From the NCBI RefSeq assembly GCF_030028105.1, contig NC_092398.1:24319649-24383648 (forward strand): a stretch of DNA of 64,000 nucleotides. The letters are read 5' to 3'. The notes beneath the pieces were generated by a model, which saw only the letters and a program-made list of their open reading frames with translations, was not told the origin of the DNA and did no database searches. Below, in pieces: positions 4,507 to 64,000 of this stretch. Positions within the stretch are counted from its first letter, which is position 1; each line of letters begins with the position of its first letter. The position numbers and the translations under genes are program-made. Source of the stretch: Mobula birostris. Taxonomy: Eukaryota.

Positions 4507-4515
4507 GGTTGTCCT

Positions 4516-7378: not shown

Positions 7379-7439
7379 AAGGAGTCGTTGTGGAGAGAAT
7401 CTTCCTGTTAGGTTGAAAGGAGGTTTAAAAGTTTGAGGG

Positions 7440-9207: not shown

Positions 9208-9229
9208 TAGAGCTAAAAAAAAAAAACTG

Positions 9230-35800: not shown

Positions 35801-35854
35801 TCGACGTTCACTGGGAATCTCTCCCCCAACAATTTCGCGACCGGTAGATTCAGA

Positions 35855-36697: not shown

Positions 36698-38078
36698 TAG
36701 AATACCTCGTGGGCCCTCAGCCGACCAATATCTCCTGACTACAGACACAGTGGACAGTCGGCTGCAAATATGGTCAGCACTGGAGGCTTTCCTGTACGCT
36801 TCTTCCAATCTCTTAGAACATAGAGCGTAGAACAGTACAGCTCAGGGACAGGCCATTCGGCCTACTATTGTCGGATCAATTAAATTATTAAATTACTGGC
36901 CAATTAATCTAATCCCCTCTGAATACCCAATGTCGATATCCTTCCAATTAGCTCATTTCGCCGACATAAACATCCCTGAAAAGTCTCTGAGCTATCTGTC
37001 TTTACCATCATCCCAGTCAGCGTATACCAAGCACGCACCACTCTCTCTGTGTAAACTACTTGCCCCTCCCATCTCCCTTGTAATTACGCAGTCTCCTCTT
37101 AAATGCATGGCCTTTGGTGTTAGACATTTCAACCTTCGGTAAAATATACTGTTGCTCTGTGCCTTTCATAACCTACCAAAATTCCATCAGGTCTCCCCTC
37201 TCTTTTCGCTGGCCCAGTCTTCATTCGGATACAACAATCCATGGTCTCGTCCACTGTCGAGATGAGGCCACACTCAAGTTGGAGGAACAATAACTTATAT
37301 TGCATTTGGGTACATCCAACTTGCTGACATGTACGTAGATTTCTCAAAATTCCAGTCATGCCCTCCCTCCTACACCGCTCCCCATCGCCTTTTCCCTCTC
37401 TCACATTGCCTGCACATCTCCTCCCTCTGTTGCTCCTTCCACCTTATCTTTCCTTCATGGGCTTCTTTCCACTCCCCTTCTCGAGCCCTATATTTCTTTC
37501 ACCAATCAACTTTCCAGCTCTTTACTTTATCCCTTGCCCCGGTTTGACGTATTACCTTGCGTTTCACTCTCCCCCTCCCTATCTTTTAATTCTGCACCTC
37601 ATCTTTTCCTCACGGTCCTGCTGAAGGAACTCAACCCGAAAGGTCGAATGCACATTTCTCCATAAATCTTCAGAAATTTCTGTTTGTTTCTCAGAATTCC
37701 ACCATCTGCAGTTTCTCTGTTTGTAATCTGGCACATCCATTCCACATCAACTCTGTCTAGGCCTTTCAATATTCCAAATGATTTAATGACATCACATTCA
37801 TCCTTCTGAATTCCAGAGATACAGACCCGGAGCTATCAAAGCTTCTTTCTATGATGACCTTTTCATTACCGGAATTATCTTTCTGAACCTCTCCTGAACC
37901 CGCTCCAACGCCAGCACTTCTTTTCTTAGATGAGGAGCGCAAACTGTTCACAATACTCAAGCGAGGACTCACCGGTGCTTTATAAAGCCTCAGCATCACA
38001 TCCCTTCTCCTGTATTCCAGACCTCTTGAAATGAACACTACCATTAACTTTGCCTTCTTCACCACCGATTCTACGTAT

Positions 38079-41000
38079 CAGACCATAAGGCCATAAGACA
38101 AAGGAGCAGAAGTCTGCCATTCGGCCCATCGAGTCTCCTCAGCCATTTTATCATGAGCTGATCCATTCTCCCATTTAGTACCACTCCCCCGCCTTCTCAC
38201 CATAATCTTTGATGCCCTGGCTACTCAGGTACCTATCAATCTGTGCCTTAAGTACACCTAATATCTTGACGTCCACTGCTGCCCGTGGCAACAAATTCCA
38301 TAGATTCACCACACTCTGGCTAAAAAATTTCTTCTCATTTCTGTTCTGAATGGGCGGCCTTCAATCCTTAAGTCATGCCCTCTCGTACTAGACTCCCCAA
38401 TCATGGGAAACAGCTTTGCCATATTCGCTCTGTCGATGGCTTTCAACTTTCGAAATGTTTCTATGAGGTCTCCCCTCGTTCGTCTAAACTCCAAGGAATA
38501 CAGTCCAAGAGCGTACAAACGTTCTTCATATGTTAACCCTCTCATTTCCTGAATCATTCTAGGGAATATTCTCTGTACCCTCTCCAACGTCAGCATGTCC
38601 TTTTCTTAAATAAGGAGACCAAAACTGCCCACAGTACTCCAAGTGAAGTCTCACCAGCGACTTATAAAGCCTCAACATCACATTCCTGCTCCAATACTCT
38701 ATTCCTCTTGAAATGAATGCAAACATTGCATTTGCCTTCTTCACCACCGACTCAACCTGGAGGTTAATCTTAAGGCTATCCTGTGTGAGGACTCCCAAGT
38801 CCCGTTGCATCTCAGAAGTTATAATTATTTCCCCATTTAAATAATAGTCTGCCCGTTCATTTTTTTTCTGCCAAATTGCATCACCAAACACTTTCCAACA
38901 CTGTGTTTCATTTGTCACTTCTCTTTGTTTCCTCAGCACCACCGGCCCCTCCACCTACCTTCGTATCGTCAGCAAACTTAGCCACAAATCCATCTATTCC
39001 ATAATCCCAATCGTTGATGTACCAATTAAAAAGAAGCGGCCCCAGCACGGACCCCTGTGGAACACTACTGGTAACCGGCAGCCAACCAGAATAGGATCCC
39101 TTTATTCCCAGTCTCTGTTTCCTGCCAATCAGCCAACGCTCTTTCCACGTATTTAACTTTCTCATAATCCCATGGGCTCTGATCTTGTTAAGTAGCCTCA
39201 TGTGTGGCACCATGTGAAAGGCCTTCTGAAAATCCAAATATACAACATCCACTGCATCTCCCTTGTCCAACCTACTTGTAATTTCTTGAAAAAATTGTCA
39301 TATCTTTGTCAGGCAGGATTTTCCTTTAAGGAATCCATGCTGAGTTCTGCCGACCTTGTTATTTGTCTCCAGGTGCTCTGTAACGTCATCCTTGACAACT
39401 CGTTTCTGCATACCACGACACGGTTTATCCTACCCCACCCCATCCCCCATTCAATCCCTTCCTACCTATGATCGTGACACTTCTCACGCTCTTAAACTTT
39501 TCGATGATTTTAAGTTCCCTGACCCCACCTTTTTATTTTTCCCATGCATGTCCAGTCCCTATATACTTCTATTACCCATCGGGAAGGTCGTAAAGATCTC
39601 CGCTTCTTTTTGGATTCGACACCTAATCAGTTCCCCTCTGCCACCATTCTGCTCCTTATAGCGGAATTAGTTCTTACTCTTAATAAGTCTTCCTCCAAAG
39701 TAAAGGTGTAGCTATGGGCACCCGTATGGGTCCTAGCTATACCTGTCGTTTTGTTGGTTTTTGCAACAATCTATGTTCCAAACCTATTCTGGTATCTGTC
39801 CCCAACTTTCCCTTCGCTACATGGACGACTGCATTGGTGCTGCTTCCAGCACGCATGCTGAGCACGTTGACTTAATTAACTTTGCCTCCAACCTTCACCC
39901 TGACCTCAAGTTTACCTGGTCCATTTCCGACATCTACCGCCCCTTTTTAGATCTTTCTGTCTCTATCTATGTTGACAGCTTATCTATAGATGTCTACTAG
40001 AGGCCGACTCACTCTCACAGCTATCTGGACTATTCCTCTTCTCACCCTGTCTCTTGCAAAAATGCCATCTCCTCCTCGCAATTCCTCCGTCTCCGCCGCA
40101 TGTGCTCTCAGGATGAGGCTTTTCATTCCAGGACGAGGGAGATGGCCTCCTTTATTAAAGAAAGGGGCTTCCATTCCTCCACCATCAACTCTGCTCTCAA
40201 GCGCATCTTCCCCATTTCACGCACATCTGCTCTCACTCCATCCTTCCGTCACCCCACCAGGAATAGGGTTCCCCTGATCCTCACCTACCACCCCACCAGC
40301 CTCCAGGTCCAACATATTATTCTCCGTAACTTCGGCCACCTGCAACGGGATCCTACCACTAAGCACGTCTTTCCCTCCTCCCCCTCTCTGCTTTCCGCAT
40401 GGATCGCTCCCTTCGCGACTCCCTTGTCCATTCGTCCCTCCATCCCTCCCCACTGATCTCCCTCCTGGCACTTCTCCTTGCAAGCGAAACAAGTGCTACA
40501 CATGCATTTACACTTCCTCCCTTACCACCATTCAGGGCCCCAGACAGTCCTTCCAGGTGAGGCGACACTTCACCTTTGAGTCGGCTGGGGTGATATACTG
40601 CTTCCAGTGTTCCCGATGTGGCCTTCTGTATATTGGTGAGACCCAATGCAGACTGGGAGCTCGTTTTGCTGAACAGCAACGCTCTGTCCTCCAGAGAAAG
40701 CAGGATCTCCCAGTGGCCACACATTTTAATTCCACATCACATTCCCATTCTGATATGTGTATCCACGGCCTCCTCCACTGTAAAGATGAAGCCACACTCA
40801 GGTTGGAGGAACAAAACCTTATATTCCGTGTGGGTAGCCTCCAACCTGATGGCATGAACACTGACTTCTCTAACTTCCGCTAGTGCCCTACGTCCCCCTC
40901 GTACCCCATCCGTTATTTATTTATATACACACGTTCTTTCTCTCTCTCTCCTCTTTCTCCTTCTGTCTCTCTGACTGTACCCCTTGCCTATCCTCTGTGT

Positions 41001-43240
41001 TTTTCCTCCCTCCCCCTTTTCCTACTGCCTGGGCCTCCTGTCCCATGATCCTCTCATATCACTTTTGCCAATCACCTGTCCAGCTCTTAGCTCCAACCCT
41101 CTCTCTCCTGTCTTCTCCTATCATCTTGGATCTCCCCCTCCTCCTCCCACTTTCAAATCTCTGACTAGCTCTTCCTTCAGTTAGTCGTGACGAAGGGTCT
41201 CGGCCAGAAACGTCGACTGTACCTCTTCCTAGAGATGCTACCTGGCCTGCTGCGTACACCAGCTGCTTTGATGTGTGTTGCTTGAGTACTTTCTCTGTCG
41301 TAATTGTGACTGCTCACACTTCTCTTCCCTGCCACCTTTGAGTGTCCGTTATACGGATGATTTTCTCCTCAGTGAGGACTGATGCAAAATACTCGTTCAG
41401 TTCCACCGCCATCTCCTTATCTCCCATTACAATTTCTCCAGCATCATTTTCTATCGGTCCTATACCTAGCCTCACCTGTCTTTTTCTCTTCATATACTTG
41501 AAAAAGCTTTTAGTATCCTCTTTGATATTATCTGCTAGCTTCCTTTCATAGTTAATGCTTTCCCTCTTAATGACCTTCTTAGTTTCCTATTGCAAAGTTT
41601 TAAAAACTTCCCAATCCTCTGTCTTCCCACTAATTTTTACTTCCTTGTATGCCCCCTCCATTGTTGTAACTTTGACTATGGCTTTTTCCATTCAAAAATT
41701 TCTTCTTTTTTGGAATACACCTGTCTTGCACCTTTCTCACTTCTCGCATAAACTCCAGCCACTACCGCTCTGCCGTCCTTCCTGCCAGTGTCCCTTTCTA
41801 GTCAACTTTGACCAGTTCCTCTCTCATGCCACTGTAATTTCCTTTACTCCACTGAGATACTGACACATCGGATTTCGGCTTCCCTTTTTTCAGATTTCAC
41901 AGTGAACTCAATCATGTTATGATCATTGTCTCCTAAGGGTTCCTTCATCTCAATTTCTCTAATCACCTCGGGTTCATTACACAATACCCAATCCAGTACA
42001 GCCGATCCCCTAGTGGGATCAACAACCTGTTCTAAAAAGCCATCTCGCAGACATTCTACAAATTCTCTTTCTTGAAATCCAGTGCCGACCTGATTTTCCC
42101 AATCCATTCGCATGTTAAAATCTCCCACAATTTTCATAACATTGCCCTTCTGTCAAGGTTTTTCCATTTCCTTTTGGAAATGTGTAGTCCACATTACTGC
42201 AGCGGTTTGGAGATCTATAAATAACTGCCATCAGGGTCTTCTTACCCCTGCGATTTCTTCGCTCAACCCATAAAGATCCCGTACCTTCCGATCCTATCTC
42301 ACCTCTTTTTAATCATTTAATATCATTTCTTACTAATAAACCCACGCCTCCCCCTCTGCCTACCTTCCTATCCTTCCGGTACAGCGTGTGTCCTTGGACG
42401 TTCAGCTCCCAGAGACATGCATCATTTAGCCAGTTCTCAGTAATGGCCACAATATCATACCTGCCAATCTGTAGCTGTACGACAAGGTGATCCACCTTAT
42501 TCCTTATGCTGCGTGCATTTCAATATAACACCTGAAGACCAGTATGTGGTACTTTTCGCTTTGGTTTCGCTGCAACCTTATTACACTGCAACTCATCCCG
42601 ATGGCTACAAATTTGCCCCATCACCTGCTTGTCTTTCCTGGCATTTTTACTGCTCACTATCTTGGATTTGTTTATGTTTTCCCCTTCCTCCGCTCTATCA
42701 TTCCGGGTCCCATCGCCCTGCCAAACTAGCTTAAACCCTCCCTAACAGCTCTATTAAATCTTCCCGCAAGGATATTGGTCCCCTTCGCGTTCAGTCGTAA
42801 CCTGTCCCTTTTGAACAGGTCATATTTCCCCCAGAAGAGATCCCCATTATCCAAGAAACTGAAACCCTGCCCCCTGCACCGCTCTCCAAGCCATGCATTC
42901 ATCTGCCTGATCTTACTATTCTTGCCCTCGCTCGCACGTGGCACAGGTAGCAATCCCGAGATTACTACCCTGCAGGTCCTGCTTCTCAGCTTCCTTCCTA
43001 ACTCCCAGAAATCTCTCTTCAGGACCTCCTCCCTTGTCCTATCTATGTCATTGGTACCAACATGTACCAAGACAACTGGCTGCTCGCTCTTCCCCTTCAG
43101 AATATTCTGGACCCGATACGAGACATCCCGTACCCTGGCACCTGGGAGGCAACACATCATGCGGGTATCTCTATCAGGCTCACAGAATCTCCTGTTCGTT
43201 CCCCTGACTATGGAATCCCCTATGACTACCTCTCTGTAGT
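38079..43240 (-). mobile_element. Near full-length decayed CR1 LINE (unit 2)
   Basis: Copy of 14458-19620. Confidence 0.92.
39410..41281 (+). mobile_element. Penelope-like element (unit 2)
   Basis: Copy of 15790-17661. Confidence 0.9.
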
Positions 43241-46058: not shown

Positions 46059-47830
46059 ATGGGAACTGTCTGCAGTCGGGCGTCTGCTACTGCTCCTGCA
46101 GACCCGCCCCAACGAGCAAGATCGCGTTGGGCCTTGAACGTAAGTAGGAAAACCGTGAAACGGATGAAAACTGTGAAGAAAGCTCGGCAGAATGGAGGAG
46201 ATCCCTTGATACCCCCGGAGTCACGAGCAGACACGGTAATTCGGGAAACAGGTGACGACCGATACGCTGTAACTTTTAGCAAAGATCTGTACGGCTGGTC
46301 GCAGGGAGACTGGCCGTACGGAGGGAGTTTTAAAATTGATTTGCAACAGACCTGTTGGGACGAGGTAGCGAATGGAAATGGGAACCCTAAGTGTGATTTT
46401 GAGAATATGATGGGATGTTTTGGGAAATGGATGCGGGTGGCAATGAGACACCAGCCCCATAAACAAAAGAGAAAGAAAGAAAAAGAGGAGGAGCACCCTG
46501 TCACGAAGAGTCTCGATGAAAAGCAAGGCCCGGCACCACCAACCGCTCCGCCACCCGACCCACCCAGACACCCCCCCCCCCCCCCCAACGATGCGGGCAC
46601 ACGTACCATTATACTCCCGGATACCGCAAATGGTATCTCTCGAAAGGAGAGATTCTGGTCCTAATATTCTACCAAATGGACTGATAAACGAGATAATAGA
46701 GATGGTAGCAGCCTGGGTCAGCAGAGTAACCGCACTCGGGAACAATCGGCACATCAGCTCCTGCTGAAGGAGCTGATGAACCCGCACAAAGGGCAGGCGG
46801 AGGGGAAGGCAGGGAGGTATAACTGGAGGAAGGGGTACAAACCAGACACATGTCTCAACGAATGGCCATTCACTCCTCCACCTCTCCGACAGTTCAGCCT
46901 CCAACAATAATGATAGGAGAAACAGTAATATTAAAGCCATGGACGCCTGCAGAGGCCTGAGCTTTTGTAGCTGAGCTCCCGAAACGAATAAAAAGACCAA
47001 CAGCGTTCCTCAGTTGGTTGGAACAAATGTGCGAAATTTATAAGCCTCTCCCGGTAGATTTGCGGACTCCTTTTCAAACGTGCCTATGAATGCTCCTGGG
47101 CAGCTTCGAAAGATACATTCCAGATTCCGCCCGGGAAGAATGCAGATTAGCGGAAAGATGATGAGAAAACACCACAGGGTAACGAATCCCTGTGTTCTTG
47201 GCTGTCCAGTAGAGGGAAGGACGCCATATTGTGGGCAGCACAACGGCATAGGGACTTAGGAGAAGTGACTAGATGCTTTCAGAAGAAGATTGAAGGAGCC
47301 CCTGATTTTATATGCCTGAGTTCTCTTAGAGGAAAATGGGCCATTGGCCATCTAGACTCTGCAAAATTTAATGTTGCCCCAACAAGGCAGATTTTTAAAA
47401 TGCGAGATTTGAACTGGCAGGCTATGCCTTGGTCAAAACTAGTCACTACTTTGATAAACATGGTAAGGGAGGGAACCTTCGTCGCACCAGGGATGGCCTT
47501 CAAACGCATTAGACAAAATTTTACCTACAGGAACAGGGTAGGGGAAAAGAAAAACGGAGAACATAGAAAAAGAGAGTTGAAAGATCCCAGGATATGTGCC
47601 GAAGATGTGGGGAAAATGGGCATTGGGCCAAAGAGTGCCGAATTCGTGCAAAGCAGGGTCGAAGTACTTCCTATAAAGAACCCACAGAATGGACTGGACA
47701 AAACGAGAGAAGGGTGACCTCCTTCTCTTATAGCAACCCTTTCCCACTGGAATATGGGTCCCAGGGGAGGTGGTGGTATAGGGAACGGTCATATCACTTT
47801 CCCAAGACTCCGAAACGCAACCCATGGTAA
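46059..47830 (+). pseudogene. gag: ERV gag (frameshifted, with stops)
   Basis: MGTVCS myristoylation-type start, matrix-like WPYGGSF, PTAP late domain, zinc knuckle CRRCGENGHWAKEC (CX2CX4HX4C) at ~47597. Confidence 0.85.
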
Positions 47831-49534
47831 ATCTTAGAATAGGAGACACTCACTTGGTGGACACTGGCGCTACCCTGTCCTCTGTACCCCCACCCTGGGA
47901 TTACCCCTGAGCCAGAACAGGTTAGGAACCGTAGTGGTAGCCGGAATCCCACTGTCAGAACTCTTATCGAAGAAGTTCCCCTTGTCCCTGGGAGACACTT
48001 GTATACAAGAAACTTTGATAGTCTCCAATACTACTCCCTTGCCGCTGTTGGGATGCCAAGCTCTGTGTAAGGTAGGAACTACTATTTACCGCTCTCCTCA
48101 GGGCATGTACATGGAAGTACCCTCGCCCCGGACGCATCAGTTAACGTCCCTGTTTCTCAACCACGAGGCCAAACTCGACCTGGTATTGTAATGCTGGCAA
48201 CTCGAGGGCAACCCCGACACAGTTAGGATGTACCGGCTGCGGCCAGAACTTGAGGGGCTGGCGCCGACGGCTCGCACTGAAGCTTTGTGGGGCTTGTTGC
48301 AAGTGGTCCGATACTACTCCCGTTTACACTGCACCGCCTGGTAGACAACGACAGATGATCCAGAATACCGAGAAAAGGCGTACACCCACGAAGGGCTTAA
48401 AGCTGAGATACACCCAGACCCTTATCTATATTTTGAGAAGGAAGGGCTGGGTATCCCGTTACGCCTGACCGCAGAGTAGCAACCCCTGTCCCACCTGGGA
48501 CCTGCGTCAATACCTCACCTACCCCTTGCTGTACGGCCTCCCTATCAGGAGAAACAGATAGGCCCAATGATGAAACGGTTGCAATCAGCCCCTATTATCG
48601 AGTGCATTGGGGACTTTGAATGGAACGGGCCTGAGGAGGGAAGAATACACCTTCCAGGAACATCCCGCCAGTTGGAGGACCCCCTAACCGAATTTCAACG
48701 ACAACAACTGCCCGAGCCGCCAGGCCATAGGAGCCCTTCAGCATTGGAAAGGGTAAATGCAGACTTGTGGGCCCTCCACAAGACACACGTGGGTCGAGTG
48801 GTCACTGCGAGAGACCTCTGTGTCAAGCTAAAAATGAATGCTGTATTACCATGTGTTAGGCAGTATCGACTAGCAGCTAAGGCAGAAGAAGGCATAGCCC
48901 CGGTCAGGGACTCTCTGCTCCAACAGGGGGTTCTCAAGCCTACCGTCAGCCCCTGTACAGACCAGTACTGCCTATACCTAAAGTTGGACGGCCCAATGAG
49001 CATTGCAATTCCCATAGCACCGGTGGTACCTGACGTCAGTATGATTGTTTCATCCATTCCCTCTGATGCTACTGTCTACACTGTGGTCGACCTGTGCTCC
49101 GCGTTTTTTTTCTATTCCTCTCCATCCGGATAGCCAGTATTTGTTTGCCTTCACATACAAAGGGCATCAGTATACCTGGACCCGATGCCCCAGGGGTATA
49201 CCGAAATTCCGGCCGTGTACGCTGCTGCAGTTGAACATGACTGAGACAAGTGTCATCTGGGAGAAAGTTCTATATTAATACAATACGCCGACGATCTGTT
49301 GGTGGCGTCAGCTACACTGGAAGAGTGTGTAAAAGACTCAGTGACCCTACTCCAGTTCCTAGCTGCCCGAAGTCATTGGTGGCTAAATCCAAGCTGCAAT
49401 TTTGTCAGCCACAAGTGCAGTACCTCGGGTGTTCATTGAAGGCTGGGAATCGAGAGATCGTAGCGGACCGAATACAGACCATTTTACAGACACCGACGCC
49501 AAAAACGAAAAAATTCGGGTCGACGGTCAGCTAA
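47824..49534 (+). pseudogene. pol: ERV pro-pol: protease, 2H-phosphodiesterase-like insert, RT (truncated before RNase H/integrase)
   Basis: LVDTGATLS (DTG at 47860), LLG; LHCTA (48327) and PHLPLAV (48516); RT VVDLCSAFF/SIPLHPDSQYLFAFTYKGHQYTWTR, QYADDLLVA (49284), KLQFCQPQVQYLG; several stops and frameshifts. Confidence 0.9.
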
Positions 49535-49990
49535 CAACAGGCAGAGTCCAGCGGGACTGAGGATGTAGTGGTTGACCGGAGTGGTGTTCATAGGAGCGTT
49601 GATTCAGGTGGTGGGAGGGAGCAACACTAACACCTTATTGTTCCTCTGCCATCCGTATGCTGATAGGTAAAGCAGGGAGCATGCTGCGTATGGGCCGAAA
49701 TTCCCCAGCTGGTAAAACGATGATCCGTATGTCGGTGGTCCCTCTTAACCTAAGTGAAGTGACATCAGTAGTTTTGTTTAGTGGGGGCAGGAATGGTTGC
49801 AGTGTCAATGGTTCTGAGATCTGGCCAGGATGGCCTTCTGGCTTTGCAGGATGGTACTATCGGCCTTCTTCCCGCAACCCGTCCAACCTATGGTCAGGAG
49901 TTAGTGTAACTCCACCGCAGCGGAACAGTAAAAAAAAAACTTCTGTTACTGCAATAACAATTAGAGCTGCCCTTACCAAGTAGGGGATTT
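49535..49990 (+). pseudogene. Probable env SU remnant
   Basis: Lies between truncated RT and the PPT; Cys/Trp/Gly pattern (YC..., GCSVNGSE.WPGWPSG..GWYYRP) reminiscent of class I SU N-termini; no TM region seen. Confidence 0.4.
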
Positions 49991-50206
49991 CTCCTGCTCA
50001 AAAATAAGACTGCCTCTGATGACACTCTACCCCGTCCCCTTAATGGCAGTTACCCGAAATGATGGAAGACACAGCCGGCAAGGAGCATCTGCTGAGGTGA
50101 AGAGGTGTACCCAGGGAAGAAAATACCATTCTGCGATGCATATAAATTCCCTTATGAGGAGGAGGAGGAAATACCACAGTAAAGAGTGTTAATCTCGAAG
50201 ATTAAC

Positions 50207-50216
50207 AAGGAGGGAA
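50207..50216 (+). promoter_or_regulatory. Polypurine tract
   Basis: AAGGAGGGAA immediately before the 3' LTR start at 50218 (same at 23463-23472). Confidence 0.8.
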
Positions 50217-50217
50217 C

Positions 50218-50898
50218 TATGGAAGAAAAATATCAAAGCTTTACATTGTAATGGACATTGAGGGAATAATGAATTGTTTTTAAATGTTAAATCGAAGTCT
50301 ATAATCATTTATCTGTAATTAATGTACTCTGTGTGACTGAACTGTGCCTTGTAACAGAGATATAAGAAATCTCTATCTGTAGTTCTTTGTTCTGAGAAGT
50401 TTTATCCGTCTGCGTTTGAGCCAGCTTGCCTGATATATATTTGAGAACCAAAACTTATGTAAAATGTGTAGCTGCTGGAGGAGTTTTTTTTTTTTTTGCT
50501 TCTTCGCTATTCGGTAGCGTTGCTGGAGTTCCAGCAAAGTACTAAGAAACTGATTGCGAAGATTTGCCTTGAAGTCGTCATGCAGGATGCAGTGGACTAA
50601 TTATACATTGTTCTCTAAAATGATAGACATTGTTTTCTGTATATTTAAATGCTAGACAAAGGTTTAAATAAGGAACTATCTGGTCATAAATTGTCCTGAA
50701 GCACGTGACATTTACTTCTGTAAAAATCCACTTGTATCTCTTGTCACGTACCATTCATGCATAAGTATGGCTGAGTTTTCTTGTTTGACAGAGTCCTAAG
50801 ACGCTGATTTTCGAACTTGGGCTCTCCATGATATCATGTGTCAATAAAGATTTTCCGAAGCGGCTCCCTTCGGGTCTGTGTACTCTTTTTCCGCGACA
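50218..50898 (+). repeat. 3' LTR of the unit-2 provirus
   Basis: Homologous to the 5' LTR; AATAAA at 50843; ends ...GCGACA followed by TSD GTCAC. Confidence 0.92.
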
Positions 50899-53373
50899 GT
50901 CACGAATCACTCTAGCACTCATCATGTCTACTGGCAATGTTGGAACACAAGTGTGGAGGAGATACAGACTCCCAATGAAGAGATGGTGACCAGAGTTCGT
51001 TTATAAAATTCCAACAGAACATTCATCGCTTGGTGGATTGCCACCGTGAGACGTAGCATTCCCAAAACTGGGATCGCGCGATCACGTCTAATTGGAAGAC
51101 TGCTAACATAAGTAACATGGAATCTCCGAGCCTATCAAAATAAAATGAGCAAGTCTAAACAGAAAGCACCGGGACCGCATCCCAAAGAGCGAGTCACTCG
51201 AGAAAAAAAAAGTAGGAAGAAATGTCAATCATTGACGTCTCGTTAAAGTTAACGAATTCGGGTGCGCCAATACTCTCAGAGCTCAACACGCTCCTGGACT
51301 CCGCAAAGTCAGCGGCATTACGACCCGAGTAGGCGGTCACTCCCGACGGATGTACTGTATACGTGCGGCTGCTCTCCTCTTACGCAGATGAAAAGACGTT
51401 TTCCATCTTCTGAGATTAATGTGATTATTGGAGTGTATTTTGTATTGGTTTCCTTCAGGTTTTCGGTATTTCTTTCTTGTGGCCGATTGCCGGGGGGCTG
51501 AGCTGGTAATTGTTGCATGTAGAAGGCGATGTTGGGGAATTTGGAGTCACTGTCCCTGTTCCTTTCAGAAAGTAAGGGGTCGAAAACCTAATCTGTACGG
51601 AGTCTTTGATTGTTATTGTGGCCGATTCTTTTTTTAATGCCCGCAAGGGGGAATATTGGGGTCCTCGAGTTATTTTTCTATTTTTTCCGTGCCGAATACT
51701 CTGGGGGAGTCGATGTGTTTTCTTTCATCAACATCTACGGTCTTTCTTTATTTAATCGCTATCCGTAGTAAACAAATATCATCATTTAATCACACATGCA
51801 GCGAAAATAAGAGAGATGACAGTGATATGATTAAATTATACTGAGTCAACACCCTCCACTATGTCAACAATTCACAATTTCACCCAGGGGGCGACCCTGC
51901 TGCTTGTCCTGGGGTTAAGAACTGGGGAAGAAGGCGGGACCACGAACATCAGAAGCACCACCCACCCACCCGACTCAACTTTTTAAAGTAGTTGGCTTCT
52001 TAATGCAGTCTGTCCTTCTCTCCTCAGTGACAGGTCCCAACAGCACCACTCCGCTCATTGGTATCTCCCGTCACAGCGCTCTCCCACTCGCTCAGCTCCC
52101 ACTCAGTGGTCGCGCCCGCGCGTATGAACAAAACATGCCGACGAGATAGAAGTCCATTGCCAATATAGACAACCGGCTTCCACTTGTATCCTTTGGTGGA
52201 TAAACATCAACCGGGTGCTTTAGCACAACGGACGAGCTATGCGGTCGGGTGTAGTGAATGCCGATTCACCGCTCGGAAAACAGACGACAGACACGAACAC
52301 CGCGGGGCCGCGCCGACTTTCCTGAACTGAAAATGCGCAGTGGGTGGGGGCTTCTGGGGAATGTACTCTAGATGTTATTGCTTACAGGGCATGCGCTGCG
52401 TTGCGGAGCATCCTGAGGAATATAGTAGATTCGGAATACTTCAACTGCGTATGCTCTATAGCTCATGAGCTCTTTGGGAGTCCTGCACCCTCCTGGAAGT
52501 TCTTGTTTCACAATCTTATAAGGTCTCAATGATTTCTGCACGTTAGACTAGAAATTGCCAGTACAACTTCAAAAGTTAATTTCATTTATCTATGAGATCC
52601 AATAAGGCCGGTAAATTTTCCCCATTCCCAACAGCCTCCAGAAAGATGGGGGTGAACTGCGCCCTTGAATCGCCACAGTCTGTTGAAAGGGACTGCTGGG
52701 GCCGAGGATGCAGGGTTCAGAGCCGTTGACGGTGATGGATTTCATTTAACTTGCCCGTGATCGAATGGCAGAGCAGACTTGATCGGCCGGCTGGTCTCAT
52801 TCTCTTGCCTTAAGGTCTTATGAAGTTGGGACAGCGGATGGCTCTTAGGTGGTTCGCACTGTTCGCTGCCGCCCCGCCCCCTGCGGGAAAAGCAGCAGGG
52901 TTGAGTGGGGGTGTTACCGGAATTGTCCGGGCGAGCAAACGATCTGAATTGTGCGGACATACATTGTCCGCCAGTGTTGGAGATTGGTGTCTGACGTCAG
53001 GAGTGGCAGGTGAGGGTCTTCTTGTCACACGAGTCAAGCTTGTTAGCCCTGAGCTGTACCCCAAACCTAGAAGACGAGTCGATCACTCTTAGTTTGGGGT
53101 CTATCCTTTGACTTGCTTGGCATGGGTGACCCTAACGAGAGCGAAAACATAAATCTCTGACTCCAGCCGTCAAAGCTCGCTGGGCCAGTGAGGCAAGCAA
53201 GCCGCCAAACTCAACGACTGTCTTCTTGTGGTCCTGTTGGCCGGCGGTGTGGTAAAGAGAAATGGCTCGGAGAGGGGGCAAGCCCATATCCATTGGATCA
53301 GTGAATGTGAGGGGTCGACTAAGGTACTAAGAATCACAAAGGGACGGCCCAGTGATGGGCACTGCAACAACGA

Positions 53374-53653
53374 CTCCCAAGATCAGACACAGAGTGAAGC
53401 CCGTTCTACATTCTCTCATCCTGTACTTCCGGGGTCAGACACAGAATGAAGGGCTCTCCTAATCGTTCCATAACACATTCCCCGAGTCAGACACAGAGTG
53501 CAGCACCCTCCCCACTGTCCCATCACACTCTCCCGGGGTCAGGCAGAGCGTGAAGTTCCCTCCACAGCGTCCAATCGCACACTCTATGGATCAGACACAA
53601 AGTGAAGCTCCCTTTACGCCGTCCCATCACCCACTACCAGCGTCAGACACAGT
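53374..53653 (+). repeat. 52-bp minisatellite (unit 3)
   Basis: Copy of 3011-3290. Confidence 0.9.
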
Positions 53654-56600
53654 GAGTTCCAGTGAGGAAGAAATCACTGATAGTCTCCATGTACTGTCTG
53701 TGAAACTCTTGTTCACATATGGTTCGGATTTCTGCAGCATTCATGGACTCACGGTCTCAGACTATATTTTTTTGTCTGAGTGTATTTACTGATATCTTAT
53801 ATGCACGTGCAAACATTTATATTGTTTTGTTATGTGTTGCTGTTGGTATTTTTTGTTTACCTTGGCCCCGGAGTAACGCTGTTGCGTTCGGCTATAATCA
53901 TGTATGCTTGATTAACAATTAAATGAAACTATGAAATGTGGATGCAAAGGCTCATGGCGTCGTAGTTAAACATTGGGGAACGTAATTCCAAAGCATGGTC
54001 ACACTGGAGACAACATCTCAGAGATTCCCTTCGAGGCACTTCGGCCGAGCGACAGTGGTGGGGACAGATATGGAACTTTTTCAACGAGAGTATCTTCCCC
54101 CTTTGCATCAGGGACCGAGAGAGGAGGCTATCGCTCAGTGCGTTCAGAACACAACATGTTGAAGAATGAAACACGGGAACTGGTCCTACAGCACACCATT
54201 TCTGTGATAACCCGACCCCAAACTACATTAATCTCTTCAAACTTAGTGCATATCTCTTCATTCCATTCAATTTTAAACACCATAGACTATTAGACATAGA
54301 AGCAGAATAAGGCCATTCAGCTCATCGAGTCTGATTTATCATCCACCTCAGCAACATTCTCTGGTCTTCTATCCATATACTAGGACACGTTTTCTCAATA
54401 GAGAGATCGGCAACCTCCAGGGTAGCGGGGTGGAGATAAATATCTACCAGAAGAGGTGGAAGACGCTCCTTCCCTCCGGTAGCCTGCAGGTCACCATTAG
54501 GCACGTTGTAACACCTGCTTTGTTCTCCCGATCAGTGTCACAGGGAACCGCGAGGGCAGTTGGTATGTGTAGCGGGTGTATATCACAGATTCTGACTGAG
54601 CAACCTGTGATGCCAGGCAGACAATCTCAGAAGGACATTGATAATGGCTGGGTTAAACCATCTTGTAAAGATACTGGCCAGTAGAAGGCACACGAAAACG
54701 GCGGCGACTTTCCGGAAGAGAAAATGCGCTTTTGGTGGAAGAACACACACAAAATGCCGGTGGAACGCAGCAGGCCAGGCAGCATCAGAGGAAGAAATAC
54801 AATCAACGTTTCGGGCCGAGACCTTTCGTCAGGACGAACTGAAAGAAGAGTGAGTAAGAAATTTGAAGTGGTTGTCCTGCTGGATGTAGTCTACAATGCT
54901 GTTGCTTACAGGGTGTGCGCTCCGTTGTGAAGGATGTCGGGAAATGTATTAAATGAGGAATAATTCAACCGCGCATGCTCTATAGCAAATGGGGTTAATT
55001 TCAGAAATTAATCACGTGGCCTCCTTCTAACTTAACTTCTCAACAATGAAAGGAAATGCTTTGTTATTCACTGCTCTCTGAGTAAAATATTATCTCATGA
55101 TGTCAACACCTCAACTTCCTAATATTGAGCTTCCTGGAACTACAAACCCAGAGTGTCTCTACCGATGTGGAGTAACTCATCTCTTCTGTTCATTGGGAAT
55201 TAAGACCGCACCTTTGCTAAATTAGCATCCAAATTCCGCACAAGAAACAACTCCTCAAAATAACTCGATCACCCAATGAATTCGACCGTCCATCACTGTT
55301 CAGGTCCTGTGCAAGGCTACTCCCATGCGCCCAAGGGAATTTAACGTCTGAGTGCAAGTATCCAAACCTGCGGAGGACCGCGACGGAGCCGGAGATTTCA
55401 GGCAAAGGTGAGATGAATTTCCACGGGATTCAGATAACAGATACTGAGATAGTGTAGACAGTCAGAATCGCTTTCCCATTGTGGGAGTAACATTCAGAGG
55501 AAAGCTTATATTTATCATGAGGTCATGAGGACATGATTATTTTGGTATCAGAGAGTGTAATGTCCTGGTTCATATTTTTACCGTTATTTTGTAAGTATTT
55601 CATTTTAGTCTTCAGCCTCCAAGTTCACGAAACCAAATCCTTAACTATCGACTCCAATATCTTCCCAACCACTGCGGTCAGACTAATTGGCCTACAATAT
55701 TCTTTCTTCTTCCTCTCTCCATTTTTGAGGAGTCTAATGACGTTTGCAATTTTACAGTCTTCGGACCTATTCCAAAAACCAGTGATCCTTGAAAGATCAT
55801 TACGATTGCCTTTGCAATCTCTTCAGCTACCTCTTTCTGAGCACTGGGGTGTACACCATCAGGTCTATGTGACTCATCCACGTTCAGACCTATCAGTTTG
55901 CCAAGGATCTTTACCCCAGTAATGTTAACTTCACACACTTTATGATCCACGATACACGAACGGTATGTTGCTTCCGTGCTGCCAGGATAAAGAATGTCTC
56001 TGAAACGATCCAAGGACATTCCCAAAGACGACAGGGGACAGCCAAAAGTATTACTTCCTATTGGCACGAATAAAATAGGGAGACAAAGTGACGAGGTCCT
56101 GAAGAGACATTTTAGGGAATTCGGTAGAAACTAAGAAACAAGACTTTCAGGGTGCTAATCGCTGAATTGCTAACTGTGTCATGCGCCAGTCATTGTAGGA
56201 ATAGGAAGAATTGGCAGATGATGACGTAATTGATGAACTAGTGCAGAGGGCACGCAGGAACTTAGATTCATCGGACATTGGGATCTCTTCTGGTGAAGGT
56301 ATGACTTGTACAAAAGGGACTGATTACACCTGAACCCGAGATGGTCCAATATCCTTTCGTGGCTGAAAGAGGATTTTTCAGTAGCTAGCAGCTTAATGTC
56401 CAAGGTTTTACAGTGTAGCGCAAGGACAGGCAGGACGGCAGAAGTTGTGGCGTTGGTGTGATGCTGAAAAAAATGAATTGAAATCATTAGTAAGAGGTGA
56501 CAATGGAAAGAAGGTTATTGAATCTTTGTGGATTCACTGTGAGAATTCGGATACAATCCCGAAAATAATTTGGCTTATTGAGATTTTTCTATCGAGTATC

Positions 56601-57801
56601 ATTTTTCTAATTATTTTTAAACGCTCTACGATTGATATGGCTTTTAAAGAACAGGATGTATTAAGTATTAAATGCTTTCAGGACTTGTTTGTAGAGGGAA
56701 GTATCTTATCGTTTGAACAACTCTCAACGAAATACAGTTTACCTAAAACTCATTTTTTTCTTTGATACCTACAAATAAGAGATTTTTGACGGTGTCAAAT
56801 AAGAATATTTCCCAAAAGCCCTGAGAAGAACCTACTGGATGCATTTTTTAATTTGATTTTTTTTAATAATGGATCTATATCTACTGTCTAAAATATGCTG
56901 TAGAGAATGAGAATTGTTCCTTCAGATACAATAAAAAAATACCTTGGGAACAAGATTTACAGATTTCAATTTCTGAGTAAACTTGGAATCAAATTTATAA
57001 ATTGGTTAACACTTCATCGTTATGTGCCCACCACTCTGTCCTACAATTTAAAGTGGTACATTGCGCCCATATGACCAAGGATAAATTGCCTCGCTTTTAT
57101 TTAGGTGTATCTCCGTTTTGTGATCAATGTAATAATGGAGAAGCTTCACTCATTTACATGTTTTGGACATGTCCGAGTCTTGAAAAATATTGGAAAGAAG
57201 TACTTCAAACCTTCTTGATACTTTTCAAAATATACTTTAAAGCTAATCCTTTGACACTTTTATTTGGTATTGTTGGAGGAAACGATATCATTTTGGAGTC
57301 ATCTGACTTGCATATTTGGCCTTTATTTATCCTATGGCCAGAAGGACAATCTTGCTCAAATGGAAAGCTGTGTCCCCACCCATTCACTCTCAATCGTCTC
57401 GTGATGTCATGTCATGTATAAATGTAGAGAACATTCGATGTTTAATCTCTGAATCCAGCAAAGACTTTCAAACATTGTAGGTAACTTGTGTGAATGATTT
57501 TCTAAACATTTGATTTGCTGTTAAACCACAGATGATGACTGAAACTTTTTTTCATTTTTTTCTTTACTAATCATCTTCGGTCTTGGTAGTGAGTAACATT
57601 TTTAATATAACAAAATTACTATATTTCAATCTTACGTATTAATTAATCAGTATGAATATAGCGTAAGGAGTCATTATGTGCAATATATTTTTTCCTGTAC
57701 ACTGTATTCTTATATGCAAAATTAAAATAAAAATATTGGAAAGGAGTCGTTGTGGAGAGAATCTTCCTGTTAGGTTGAAAGGAGGTTTAAAAGTTTGAGG
57801 G

Positions 57802-59569
57802 AGCCATGGTTTTCAAGGGATATTGCAAGCTTGGTTTTGAAAAAGATAGGGATCTACAATAAATATATGCAGCTTGGAGTTAATGAGGTGCTCGAGAAAT
57901 ATAAAGAACGTAAAAAAGAATCTTAAGAAAGAAATTGGAAGTGCTAAAATAAGATAGGAGGCTACTTTAGCAAGTAGATAAAAATAAATCCAAAGGGTTT
58001 CTACAGTTGTACTAATAGTAAATGGATAGTGAGGGATAAAATTGGTCCCTCAGAGAATCAGAGTGGACGGCTATATGGGGAGCCAAAAGAAAGGGGGAGA
58101 TTTTGAACAATTTCTTTTCTTCGGTATTCACTAAGGAGAAGGATTTTGAATTGTGTAAGGTAAAGGAAACCAGACGGGTATTTATGGAAAGTACGACGAT
58201 TAAAGTAAAGCAAGTATTAGCGCTGTTGAGGAATCTAAAAGTGTATAAGTTTCTGGGTCCGGACAAGATATTCACTAGGACCTTGAGGGAAGTTAGTGTG
58301 GAAATCGCAGGGGCTCTGACAGAAATATTTCAAATATCATTAGAAACGGGGTTGGATGTTGCCAGAGGATTGCCATATTGCTCATGTTGTTCCATTGTTT
58401 AAAACGGGTTCTAAGACTATATCTAGCAATTATCGGCTTGTGAGTTTGACGTAAGTGGTGGGTAAATTGATGGAAAGTATTCTTAGAGAAGCTATATACA
58501 ATTATCTGGATAGACAGGGCTGATTAGAGACAGTCATCCTGGATTTGTGCGTGGAAGGTCATGTTTGACAAATCTTATAGAATGTTTGATTAGGTTACTC
58601 GGAAAGTTGACGAGGGTAAGGCGTTGGATGTTGTCTGTATGGATTTCATAAAGCCTTAGACAAAATTCCACACGGAAGGTTAGTTAGGAAGGTTCAATCG
58701 TTAGGCATTAATTTCGTTGTAGTATAATGGATTCAGCAGTGGCTGAAAGATGGCAGATAGAGTTTAATGCTGAAAGATGAGAGGTGCTACATTTTGGTGG
58801 GACTAATCAAAATAGGACATACATGGTATATGGTAGGGCATTGAAGAATGCAGTAGAACAGAGGGATCTAGGAATAATGGTGCATAGTTCCCTGAAGGTG
58901 GAATCTCATGTGATAGGGTGGTGAAGAAAGCTTTTGGTATGCTGGCCTTCATTAATTAGAGCATTGAGTATAGTAGTTGGGATGTAATGTTGAAATTGTA
59001 TAAGGCATTGGTGCGGCCAGATTTGGAGTATTGTGTACAGTTCTGGTCACCGAATTATCGGGAAGATGTCAATAAAATTGGGAGAGTACAGAGGAGATTT
59101 ATTAAAACGTTACCTGTGTTTCATCTCCTAAGTTACAGATAAAGGTTTAACAAGTTAGGTCTTTGTTCTTTGGAGCAGAGAATGATGCGAAGGGACTTGA
59201 AAGAGGTATTTAAAATTATGAAGGGGATGGATAGAGTTGACGTGGATAGGCTTTTTCCATTTGAGAGTGGGAGAGATTCAAACAAGAGAACATGAGTTGA
59301 GAGTTAAAGGGAAAAAGTTTAGGGGTAACATGAGGGGTAACTTCTTTACTCAGAGAGTGGTAGCTGTGTGGAACGAGCATCCAGCAGAAATGGAGCAGGT
59401 TTGATGTTGTCGTGTAAAGTAAATTTGGATAGATATATGGACAGGAAAGGAATCGGGGGTTATGGCTGAGTGCAGGTCGGTGGAGCAAGGTGAGAGTAAC
59501 AGATCGGCACGGACTAGAAGGGCCTAGATGGCCTGTTTCCGTGCTGTAATTGCTATATGGTTATATGGA
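57802..59569 (+). mobile_element. CR1 LINE (unit 3 copy)
   Basis: Copy of 7440-9207. Confidence 0.88.
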
Positions 59570-62500
59570 TAGAGCTAAAAAAAAAAACTGCAAGTGTAAG
59601 AAGTCCCTGTCTTAGTCGCTGAAGAACTGAGGGAAAAGTTTAAGGTAAAAGAACCCTAAGGGTAAAGTGATCATATTATGATTGAATTTATCCTGAAGAA
59701 ATTGCTCTGAACACATATGTATCAGGTACGACTGCAGAATATAGGTAAGTAGAGTGACCGCAGAATATAGGTAATTAGAGTCATGAGAGAGGCGTTGGCC
59801 AGAATAGATAGGAAAAGAACACTTTGGACGTTGGTAGAACCGCAATGGCTGGAATTTCCGGAAGCAGCTCGGAAGGCGCAGAATATAAACATCCCAACAG
59901 AAGGAAGTATTCTCAAGGCACAATGAAACAATCGTGGGCAAGAAAAGAAGTTAACGCCAACAGAAATCCAAACGGTAACCAAAAATACAGCGAGATTTAC
60001 TAGGAATTCAGAGGATTAGGTAGCTTTGAAAAACCAACAGAAGAAACCTAAAAAGTAATTGAAGATGGAATACGAAGGTAAACTGACCAATAAAATTAAA
60101 GAGGATACCAAATATTTCCTACGATAAGTAAAGTGTAAAAGAGAGACAAGAATGGATGTTGGGCCTCAGTAAATAAATGCTGTTGAGTTAGTAATGGGGG
60201 ACACGGAATTGGTAGATGATCTGAATAAATATTTTTCATCTCTACTCACTGTGGAAGACACGAGCAGGATGGGTGTGAATTCACTATTCCTCGACAGCAA
60301 GTTCTGGGGTAAATCGAAGGACTGGGATAGATCAGTCATCTGGAACAGATGGAGTAATCACAAAAAGAAACTCTGCACTGTCCCATCATACAATGTCCGG
60401 CAGAAATAAATCCCGTGGCCTCTAATAAATGGAAGGTTTTATTCTTCATTCCTCTCTGAGTGAAGTATTATCTCATGATGACAACACGTGAAATTGTGCA
60501 TATTGAGCTTCTTGTAACTTCAAACCCAGAGTGTTTGGACGGCTGTAAAAAGATGCTGGAGATGTACTAAAGGCGGACGCGCAAACGGCGGACCACCTGA
60601 ATAGGTATTTTCCATCAGTGTTCACTGTGGAAGACACCAGCATGAAGTGTCGGAATTCACTATTCCTTGATAGAAAGTTCTGGGGAATCAAAAGGTCTGA
60701 AGGTAGATAAATCACCTGACCTTATGGGGTTAATTTCAGAAATTTACCACGTGATCGCTTTATCTACTTTACTTCTCAAAAACAAGAGGAAATGTTTTTT
60801 CCCTCTGTGCTTTCTGAGTAAAGCATTATCTCATGATTTCAACAACTCAACTTCTTTATATTGAGCTTCCTGGATCTTCAAACCCAGAGAGTCTCTACCG
60901 AGGTGGACGAACTCATCTTTTCGCTCATTCGGAACCAAGGCCCATCTTTACTAAATCAGCATCCAAATTCAGCACAAGACACAACTCCTCGATCTACCTC
61001 GAGCACTTAGGAAATCCCACCGTCCGTCTCTGTGCAAGTCCCGTTCAAGATTACTTTCGTGCGCTCAGGAGAACTTAACGTCTAAGTACAAGACTCCAAA
61101 ACTGCTGAGGACCGGGAAGGAGCCGGAGGTTCCAGGGAAAGGTGAGATGCATTTCCACGGGTTTTATATTAATTCGGAAATGTGGTGGCTGATCAGGGAT
61201 CATCAGCGTGGCGGCGTTGTGGAAGGAGGCCTGCCTTACTACTTTCGGGAGGTTTTTCAGGAGAGTATATTCTCTTAGGCAATGAAGGCAGGGAAGTGGG
61301 ATTATCAATATGCAGTTCAGTGAGGAGAACTTCAGAGGTTAGAAAGCCTGGGCTTGTTTTCCATGCGGCGGAAAGCAGCTTACGGATGGCCTAACAAAGG
61401 AAATTAAGATACTAGCTATAGAGATGGTGCAGACAGGTAGAATCGCTTTTCCATTGTAGGAGCAACATTGAGGGTAAGGCTTATATTTATCTCGAGCGGA
61501 GACTTAACCGAATATAAAGGCTAGGCTATTTTAAAGTTAATTTTAACTTTTAGTTAGATTTGGAGATAAAGTACGGTAATCAGCCCTTCCGACCCGACGA
61601 GACCGTGCCGCCCAATTACTGTCATGTGATCAATTAACCTACTGGCGTCTCGAGTTTCTGGGGTTGACAGGTTTGTCATATGAGGCACTCACTTCTACTC
61701 ACTGAAATTCAGAAGAATTGGTGGGCGGGGGGGAAGTCTTCATAGAAAGCTGTTCAATGTGAAAAGGCCTCGAAAGAGTGGATGTAGAATAGATGTTTCC
61801 TATGGGAAGTAGGCTAAGACTAGACGACACAGCCGCAGAATGCAGGGCCGTTCTTTTAACAGGGAGCTTATGAGCACTTTGGAAAGCCATTCTACAGTAC
61901 TCTGCAAAGTGTCTTAGGCACATACTGTATTTAGAGACACACGTGGAGCAGCCCTTTCTGCCATCTAGCCCGCACCGCCAGCAGCCAACCTATTTAATCG
62001 CAGCCTTTTCGCAGGATATTTTACAATGATCAAATAACCTCATAACTAGTACGTCTGTTGAACGTGGAGAAACCGGAGTACCCGGAGCAAACTCACACGG
62101 TCTCGGGAACTTGTATCAGTGGTTGTAGCAACCTGATCACCCTAATCCAGTAGAATATTCTCCTGGCTGCAGAGGATGATACAGGATCAAAATAACGGCT
62201 GTGTTCGGGTGGATACCCTTCATAGGGAACGCCTCCGTGGCACTTTGTTTCACGTGGGGAGGATAAAACACGGGCAGCCACCACACGGTATTTGACAGTT
62301 CTGGGCGGCCGGGGTCCAGCGGCAAGTAATGAAAGAAGATTGTGGTCTCTGCGCTGCAGCAGACTTACTCCACCTTCACTGCCATATTACGTGTCCTGTT
62401 TCCGTTCCGTGTGGCTATCTTCCTTCTTCGTTCTCTCCTTCTCTCCTCAATACCTCTTCGCTCAATTATTCAACCCTCTAACTTCCACAATTTTTCCACC

Positions 62501-62593
62501 ACCAGATCAGACATATCGCTCTCTGAAGGAGTGTCCAATTCGACGTTCACTGGGAATCTCTCCCCCAACAATTTCGCGACCGGTAGATTCAGA

Positions 62594-63436
62594 ATGGAGT
62601 GGGGAGCACCTTCCGTCATGACAACGGTCATCCTTATCCTTACCGTCCTACTGGGCGCCCCGGGAAACGGCGCAGTCATCTGGGTGACGGGCTTCAAGAT
62701 GAAAAGTAACGTCTGGAATGTGTGCTTCCTGAACCTGGCTGTGGCTGACCTGATTTATTGCCTGTGTCTCCCCTTATACACTATTCTCCAGCTTGAACCC
62801 ATTTATTTTTGGCTGGTTGTATTACCCACTATGTTCCTAGTCGCTTTTGCCAGCCTATATCTGTTATGCCTGATCAGCATCTACCGCTGCCTGGCTATTA
62901 CACGGCCCATATGGTTCCAGCAACATCTGAGCCTCGCATGGGTTCGTGTGACCTGCTTCGTGGTCTGGGTCATAGCCATCGTCATCTTTATGCTTGTATT
63001 CTTCTCTGGGTATTTTTCCGTGTGTGCGCTAATTTGGATCACGTTCACCTTCGCCCTCCCGCCTCTTGTAATTATGATCATTTGCTACGCCTTCGTTGGC
63101 CGGAGGCTGCAAGGGGTCAGGCTCGCTGAGTCCAGGAAGCCCATACGCCTGATCGTGACCACGGTCGCCGCATTTATGATCTGCTGGCTCCCCAGCACTC
63201 TCTACGCCCTCATACCAAACGACTACATGCAGAGTCATTTTAACTGGTATATACTCACTGAGGCCCTGGCCTCATTCAACAGCGCCCTCAACCCTCTTAT
63301 CTACGTCTTCGCCGGCAGCGACTTCCGTCAGGTCTTCAGGCGCTCCATGTTTGCCTCGCTCCTGCTGGCCTTCACCGAGCATGAGCCAAAGGGTGAGACC
63401 GAGACCCGCAATTCCACCTCAAATACGAATGTCTGA
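62594..63436 (+). CDS. Chemoattractant-family GPCR, copy 3
   Basis: ORF 62342-63436; differs from copy 1 at three nucleotides (62795, 63008, 63222: K>E, W>G, A>D). Confidence 0.9.
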   Translation: MEWGAPSVMTTVILILTVLLGAPGNGAVIWVTGFKMKSNVWNVCFLNLAVADLIYCLCLPLYTILQLEPIYFWLVVLPTMFLVAFASLYLLCLISIYRCLAITRPIWFQQHLSLAWVRVTCFVVWVIAIVIFMLVFFSGYFSVCALIWITFTFALPPLVIMIICYAFVGRRLQGVRLAESRKPIRLIVTTVAAFMICWLPSTLYALIPNDYMQSHFNWYILTEALASFNSALNPLIYVFAGSDFRQVFRRSMFASLLLAFTEHEPKGETETRNSTSNTNV

Positions 63437-64000
63437 TAGAATACCTCGTGGGCCCTCAGCCGACCAATATCTCCTGACTACAGACACAGTGGACAGTCGG
63501 CTGCAAATATGGTCAGCACTGGAGGCTTTCCTGTACGCTTCTTCCAATCTCTTAGAACATAGAGCGTAGAACAGTACAGCTCAGGGACAGGCCATTCGGC
63601 CTACTATTGTCGGATCAATTAAATTATTAAATTACTGGCCAATTAATCTAATCCCCTCTGAATACCCAATGTCGATATCCTTCCAATTAGCTCATTTCGC
63701 CGACATAAACATCCCTGAAAAGTCTCTGAGCTATCTGTCTTTACCATCATCCCAGTCAGCGTATACCAAGCACGCACCACTCTCTCTGTGTAAACTACTT
63801 GCCCCTCCCATCTCCCTTGTAATTACGCAGTCTCCTCTTAAATGCATGGCCTTTGGTGTTAGACATTTCAACCTTCGGTAAAATATACTGTTGCTCTGTG
63901 CCTTTCATAACCTACCAAAATTCCATCAGGTCTCCCCTCTCTTTTCGCTGGCCCAGTCTTCATTCGGATACAACAATCCATGGTCTCGTCCACTGTCGAG

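Follow-up and report, generated by a model that had tools for sequence, protein, structure and literature searches.

The 64,000-nucleotide stretch of Mobula birostris DNA analysed here (the window) carries three copies of a receptor gene that we read as young ray members of the C3aR lineage from which the TM3-ECL2 disulfide, nearly all of ECL2 and the anaphylatoxin pocket have been lost. We give a probability of about 0.55 to this reading, in which the short-loop receptors would form a ray-specific branch of the C3aR-like lineage and, jointly, the excess of changes in their extracellular loops would reflect diversifying selection, with surplus copies decaying. Judged from the paralogue comparisons below, this loop-focused selection is likely confined to the class with the shortest loops, where it would be superimposed on weak constraint and a birth-and-death process. 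An earlier note on this DNA had drawn attention to three loop differences between copies, a point that is ordinary when taken alone because loop-focused positive selection in chemoattractant-receptor clusters is already known. It missed something more unusual: the receptor has nearly dispensed with ECL2, is devoid of the TM3-ECL2 disulfide and has lost its start codon.

In the window, segmental units of 23.6-26.7 kb with pairwise identities of 99.2-99.6% stand in tandem, and each unit carries one single-exon class A GPCR (starts at 12234, 35855 and 62594; genes, units and loops are all on the + strand). Unit 1 (1..19620, partial) shows 0.34% substitutions relative to unit 2 (23626..43240), and unit 3 (46390..64000, partial) shows 0.63%, unevenly distributed. 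The gene in unit 2 is spaced 23,621 from copy 1 and 26,739 from copy 3, and the 3.1 kb difference in unit length is explained by the stretch at 43.2-46.4 kb. Copy 2 (35855..36697) equals copy 1 (12234..13076; K68, W139, A210) exactly over the gene, with zero substitutions from copy-1 position 11375 to 13773. Copy 3 (62594..63436) is a short-loop receptor of 280 aa (7tm_1, E 2.5e-24). Private substitutions are patchy, copy 3 being most divergent over unit positions 1-5.6 kb and copy 1 over 5.6-11.4 kb; within 29.2-32.7 kb a single site separates copy 2 from copy 3. This patchiness suggests unequal crossing-over or conversion tracts. Retroelement-like remnants lie between the units (19106-19579, - strand; 21825-22535, + strand; 46052-46940; 48567-49133, + strand). 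They include a GDSL/SGNH-type ORF (Pfam Lipase_GDSL_2, E 1.6e-9), of a kind typical of LINE ORF1, and broken pol-like ORFs for which the RVT_1 match reaches only E 0.12.

Assignment of the product to class A rests on a Pfam 7tm_1 match above cut-off and on seven helices plus helix 8 in an AlphaFold model made from 108 sequences (pLDDT 86.8, pTM 0.83). The core residues N25, D52, R98, W125, P157, W198, P200, N233, P234 and Y237 align, and the helix-core signalling motifs N1.50, D2.50, R3.50, CWxP and NPxxY are intact, so that G-protein coupling is plausible. Predicted ECL1 (residues 66-72; 62789..62809) is 6 residues shorter than in most relatives, with a tryptophan in place of the disulfide cysteine at 3.25. 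Predicted ECL2 (residues 138-140; 63005..63013) has about 3 residues and no cysteine, and predicted ECL3 spans residues 206-215 (63209..63238). Together the three loops amount to 20 of 280 residues, and the model predicts a seven-helix bundle with an uncovered pocket and a rim made of these 20 residues.

Canonical elasmobranch relatives retain C3.25, the ECL2 cysteine, R4.64, R5.42 and D3.49 in 25/25 proteins and D7.35 in 24/25. Among 76 short-loop ray proteins, C3.25 is missing from 72 and the ECL2 cysteine from 75, R5.42 is lost in 73, D7.35 in 75 and D3.49 in all 76. In C5aR1 the residues Arg4.64, Arg5.42 and Asp7.35 grip the ligand C-terminus, a role described for this triad in C5aR1 and C5aR2 (10.1101/2025.11.01.685996). 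At these three positions the window copies have G or W (4.64), I, or W with a one-residue insertion (5.42), and Y (7.35), and residue 139 (4.64 by count from W125) is the last remnant of the anaphylatoxin-pocket triad. The span from W4.50 to P5.50 is 47-57 residues in 7/7 sharks and in canonical ray genes, and then 41, 36 and 32/33 residues in nested ray clades. In one Hypanus protein (P0017) this span is just 24 residues, with a further deletion into helices 4/5. Several proteins (L010, L011, L013, L014; P0002, P0003) have new cysteines at 136, 140 or 69 beside the C144 of the clade, possibly forming a substitute disulfide.

The gene model differs from the 1095-nt frame used in the earlier note. 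Segment 62342-62505 of this frame leads into a branch-point-like CTCTAAC motif (62476-62482), a pyrimidine tract and an AG (62504-62505), together a predicted 3' splice site (62476..62505), and the ancestral start ATG, 27 codons upstream of 62594, is replaced by ATA (62513..62515). From these intron-like signals and the ATA we predict a coding part of 843 nt that starts at 62594, or of 924 nt in copies that retain the upstream ATG. A 364-aa protein from the full frame was rejected, as its upstream part is intron-like and the phase differs between paralogues. The next ATG (62594, the second in-frame; MEWG...) has a strong Kozak context, with A at -3 and G at +4, and sits four residues ahead of helix 1. 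The three window copies would yield an N-terminally truncated protein of 280 aa.

A DNA search of the 4.0 Gb M. birostris genome returned 53 matches, and 40 of 43 candidates were scored, making all copy counts lower bounds. We found at least 17 young copies with 92-100% identity inside 0.44 Mb, at least 7 older genes that share their loop class (L018-L024) and at least 5 genes of the 36-residue class (L025-L029), plus fragments. Further searches added 4 genes of the 41-residue class and 7 canonical genes 3-4 Mb away. The window gene is one of about two dozen neighbouring copies. The ancestral start ATG is kept in 2 of the 17 young copies (L008, L009) and in most older paralogues, and is gone in the other 15. 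Five young copies are broken, four by frameshifts and one by a stop (L004, L005, L012, L015, L009), L007 has lost its stop codon, and L008, with 307 aa, is the only young copy that combines the upstream ATG with an intact frame. In four older genes (L019, L020, L023, L024) the ancestral ATG is lost and a new in-frame ATG lies a few codons downstream (G-M-C-N), which suggests that the N-terminal tail matters; the clade of the window copies has no replacement ATG. Three runs guessed to be RNA gave no near-identical cover of the coding region, which is evidence neither way. One of them (X21, flagged as probably DNA) holds a high-depth piece resembling the canonical paralogues, and run X22 gave low-depth pieces and a 1705-nt contig with spacing consistent with a 41-class paralogue.

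Trees were built with FastTree on 123 helix-only rows and with IQ-TREE on 69/123 rows. In the FastTree result the 76 short-loop proteins of Pristis, Hypanus, Hemitrygon and Mobula form one clade (SH 0.86). IQ-TREE support is 72 for the short-loop clade, 100 for this clade plus a canonical Pristis gene, 100 for the 36 and 32 classes together and 47 for the 32 class alone. The short-loop clade sits among disulfide-bearing ray receptors (UFBoot 100 with P0076) and is nested with strong support inside an elasmobranch C3aR-like clade, which is itself sister to tetrapod C3aR with SH 0.97 but UFBoot 67. Teleost 'C3aR' groups with C5aR1 in the IQ-TREE tree. In a profile search with 41-class proteins, short-loop members occurred only in Pristis, Hypanus, Hemitrygon and Mobula among the 120 matches listed, which held no skate protein. 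In rays, at least 7 canonical C3aR-like genes that retain the full pocket triad lie together in a tandem cluster (L035-L041), and sharks have one canonical C3aR-like protein each among the matches listed.

C3aR1 and its canonical elasmobranch relatives are the best matches in both sequence (phmmer E 3.9e-40) and fold (Foldseek TM 0.83), and structural matching to C3aR gave VIA Z 28.9 and an rmsd of 2.0 Å over 249 aligned residues, tied with C5aR1, GPR30 and FPR2. C3aR and the ray genes share a single coding exon and the intact helix-core motifs. Unlike C3aR, the ray genes have no C3.25-ECL2 disulfide and an ECL2 of about 3 residues (the W4.50-P5.50 span is 91-197 in tetrapod C3aR). They have lost R5.42 and D7.35, R4.64 is variable and DRY has become YRC; the N-terminal tail is lost in 15/17 young copies, and the genes form a multi-copy array with loop omega>1 under shared dS. 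The closest named proteins are Mobula 'C3a anaphylatoxin receptor-like' and 'FPR-like' entries (automatic annotations, 95% identity), and several ray proteins bear automatic 'FPR-like' names. An FPR identity was rejected because of the missing disulfide and because the ray proteins group with C3aR-like sequences and not with the lungfish FPR2-like protein, in trees that contained no mammalian FPR.

MRGPRs are known for tandem expansion with pseudogenes and for positively selected outer faces. MRGPRX1-4 and MRGPRA also do without the canonical TM3-ECL2 disulfide and have an open pocket (PMC10286997), and hedgehog MRGPRA has a short W4.50-P5.50 span (36). The ray receptors keep W6.48 (71/76; W198 in the window copies), whereas MRGPRX1 has G6.48, which shapes its shallow pocket, and the MRGPR cysteine pair 4.64-5.32 is absent from them (4.64 Cys in 0/76). 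Orthology was rejected, as the sampled MRGPR (n=1, an unstable long branch) never joins the short-loop ray clade, and on these alignments and trees the resemblance appears to be convergence. The FPR clusters (FPR1-3, mouse Fpr-rs) belong to the same chemoattractant-receptor group and form lineage-specific tandem clusters with pseudogenes, with positively selected sites near the binding pocket (PMC6155412); unlike the ray genes, FPRs retain the disulfide and a full ECL2. We found no description of the ray short-loop family in the literature searched, where supplementary gene-family tables could list the expansion: C3a, formyl, GPCR and chemotactic have 0 occurrences in the main text of 10.64898/2026.10.27.761883, PMC11057056 matched only in its reference list, and PMC6504862 says nothing about sharks.

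Comparison of 12234-13076 with 62594-63436 confirmed that copies 1 and 3 differ by exactly three changes, none of them silent. These are K68E (62795 A>G; the E of copy 3 is derived, and the site falls in the omega>1 class with posterior 0.89-0.99), W139G (63008 T>G) and A210D (63222 C>A). The AlphaFold model bears out the placement of one change in each extracellular loop, since the predicted limits given above put residue 68 in ECL1, 139 in ECL2 and 210 in ECL3. At the unit background (70 in 13,630), 4.3 substitutions are expected in 840 nt, so that the three observed are no excess. The probability that 3/3 would be non-synonymous is 0.40, and this aspect of the pattern is unremarkable; the probability that 3/3 would fall in loops is 3.6e-4, a post hoc figure. 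We agree with the earlier note that three sites are not conclusive alone.

Polarisation against 14 further young paralogues altered one of its claims. The trend to a more acidic surface arose from comparing the copies without polarising the changes. Among young copies D210 prevails, with the derived A only in copies 1-2, and K68 prevails, with E only in copy 3 (and in two M. hypostoma proteins), leaving E68 as the sole derived acid gain of the three. Codon 139, an ancestral CpG, encodes R in older copies and canonical relatives and runs from R to G to W among young copies, with W in 4 copies. W139 is a derived state of copies 1-2, as A210 is, and the direction given in the earlier note is wrong at these two sites. 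Site 63008 shows all four bases across the 17 copies and is the sole such site in the loops or in 2,624 flank sites. It is extremely improbable that the three differences stem from errors of assembly or consensus, or that copies 1 and 2 were falsely duplicated. The 62795 G is present in one copy only, and neither it nor 63222 C was seen among the contig matches listed, an absence that is unproven because contigs drop minority alleles. Both 63008 alleles, however, occur in assembled contigs from one sample (T in run X1, G in run X2) and in several copies, 63222 C is common to two copies despite 66 differences between them elsewhere, E68 is found again in M. hypostoma proteins, and the array-wide pattern is independent of the three sites.

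The preferred reading, diversifying selection on the loops, is carried by this array-wide pattern. With more copies the substitutions were not random across domains: among 15 distinct young copies, the 60 loop nucleotides held 34 derived alleles against 9.8 expected (p<1e-5), the expectation being tree-free and taken from random flank windows of matching sizes. In the youngest 8 copies there were 15 loop alleles against 2.5 expected, 14 non-synonymous and 1 synonymous. The excess persisted without CpG sites (19 vs 6.4, p=2.5e-4), with clusters merged into single events (23 vs 8.0, p=1.5e-5) and under both filters (14 vs 5.3, p=8e-4). The loops of the youngest copies change about three to six times faster than flanking DNA. 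Changes at codons 68-70, 139 and 209-211 are recurrent and multi-state.

Codon models were fitted with our own GY94 code (F3x4, rescaled M0 branch lengths, naive empirical Bayes), with the identical duplicates L003 and L014 and the fragment L030 dropped and frameshift or stop codons treated as missing. M2a was favoured over M1a with p=1e-9 for 16 sequences and 0.013 for the 10 open copies, and M8 over M8a with p=6e-11 and 0.0016, respectively. M8 posteriors exceeded 0.75 at sites 41, 65, 68, 69, 70, 74, 139 and 211 for all copies, and at 68, 70 and 139 for open copies. Six of the eight sites belong to ECL1, counting positions up to 2 residues away, or to the ECL2/ECL3 core; site 41 is outside. 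Of the three codons singled out earlier, 68 and 139 are among the top M2a/M8 sites; 210 is not, but its neighbour 211 is. These site models are inflated by recombination (PHI-type p=0.006 over 1.8 kb, 0.28 within the CDS) and by two-base codon changes, which occur at several loop codons. In a partition with shared dS and model-defined loops, omega was 3.6 in the loops and 0.78 elsewhere, and loop omega remained significant at 2.96 without the three codons of the earlier note. The canonical disulfide-bearing cluster in the same genome, used as a control, gave 0.87 in the loops and 0.34 in the rest. In the 36-class control loop omega was 1.05 and ECL3 invariant; its sequence LVSTFSTPIP is unchanged in five diverged paralogues (L025-L029), and ECL1 and the top of TM3 vary (M2a p=0.002).

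A serious rival, which we rate as unlikely, holds that the young Mobula array is largely redundant and decaying, and that the loop excess comes from short conversion tracts from diverged donors plus clustered mutation in tolerant loops (omega ~1). When loop dS was left free in the young clade, the loop synonymous rate was 3.4-fold higher (p=0.0015) and loop omega fell to 1.19 (p=0.62 vs 1); open young copies gave 3.4-fold and 1.12. The proposal of loop-focused diversifying selection in the earlier note is thus partly supported: the loop excess outlasts the addition of copies, but synonymous loop changes are raised too, so that within the young clade selection cannot be told cleanly apart from local conversion or clustered mutation. 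Non-loop non-synonymous sites vary about as much as the flanks (pN 0.14-0.22 vs 0.16), so purifying selection is weak (omega 0.53-0.78). The broken copies and lost start codons, the mosaic identity along units and the PHI-type signal all suit decay with conversion, and the broken copies as a set are also loop-enriched (18 alleles vs 5.1 expected, some changes predating inactivation). Neutral decay, however, predicts no above-flank rate at three separate, structurally defined spots, and the excess outlasts CpG removal and cluster merging. Raised dS beside selected sites is, moreover, also expected in theory where selection shields loop haplotypes from homogenisation.

Two further results speak against conversion and decay. 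Older 32-class paralogues (4 genes) reach a loop omega of 3.1, and of 2.4 (p=0.034) with free dS, at a dS ratio of 1.3. Less favourable to selection, freeing dS across all 9 older open paralogues yielded p=0.025 under one loop definition and p=0.056 under another. The loops ±4 residues took 20/45 of the non-synonymous changes on terminal open branches, 17/49 on internal branches and 8/46 on terminal broken branches, against an expectation of 16%. Enrichment was thus lacking on the terminal branches of broken copies, and open and broken terminal branches differed (Fisher p=0.0065); with narrow loops the difference (11/45 vs 7/46) was not significant (p=0.30).

Under the preferred reading of diversifying loops, stepwise loss of the disulfide, nearly all of ECL2 and the anaphylatoxin-binding residues would have left an open ligand pocket that diversifying selection retunes. 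The receptors would no longer read C3a or C5a and may act as a limited set of innate sensors on leukocyte- or mast-cell-like cells, tuned to variable ligands such as peptides or small molecules of microbial, parasite or damage origin. Unequal crossing-over would create copies, gene conversion would shuffle them and selection would favour new rims, with many copies lost by birth and death. Alternatively, the loop changes might serve to evade binding of the receptor by a pathogen product (toxin, receptor antagonist or entry factor) and not to gain new ligands, with extra copies perhaps serving as decoys. Toxins are known to target chemoattractant receptors, changes to several states recur at codons 68-70, 139 and 209-211, and loss of ECL2 and the N-terminus removes exposed surface. 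We find this improbable: no binder is known, and the residues of the anaphylatoxin pocket had disappeared well before the young array arose, which points to a changed ligand, although sequence data cannot tell escape from ligand retuning.

A sensory (skin, gill or olfactory) or ligand-independent role in place of an immune one is less probable still. Loss of D3.49 often raises basal activity, and all 76 short-loop proteins have lost it. Sensory neurons express MRGPRs, which are the analogue of these receptors in architecture (PMC10286997). Against this, the ancestry of the genes lies in a leukocyte receptor family, and constitutive activity would leave the loop diversification unexplained.

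The preferred reading of a diversifying C3aR offshoot admits a bolder extension, which we offer tentatively and hold to be doubtful: rays may have independently evolved an MRGPR-like sensor repertoire from the complement C3a receptor. The receptor would have been pared down in steps that took away the disulfide, the anaphylatoxin pocket, ECL2, a part of ECL1 and, last, the N-terminus, giving a minimal GPCR of 280 residues with about 24 extracellular residues. Its rim would be caught up in a continuing arms race, and it would sense a varied range of microbial, parasite or venom-type ligands. The unusual part of the finding is the architecture, in that one genome holds canonical C3aR-like genes (7 sampled) together with 41-, 36- and 32/33-residue classes. 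This amounts to a natural deletion series that shows how a class A receptor can lose lid and disulfide, and may thereby exchange a conserved complement ligand for a repertoire that diversifies. If the receptors are functional, dozens of ray proteins named 'C3aR-like/FPR-like' in databases would be mis-named, the family would represent a second, independent route to the MRGPR-like design, and its members would be testable candidates for innate sensing in rays.
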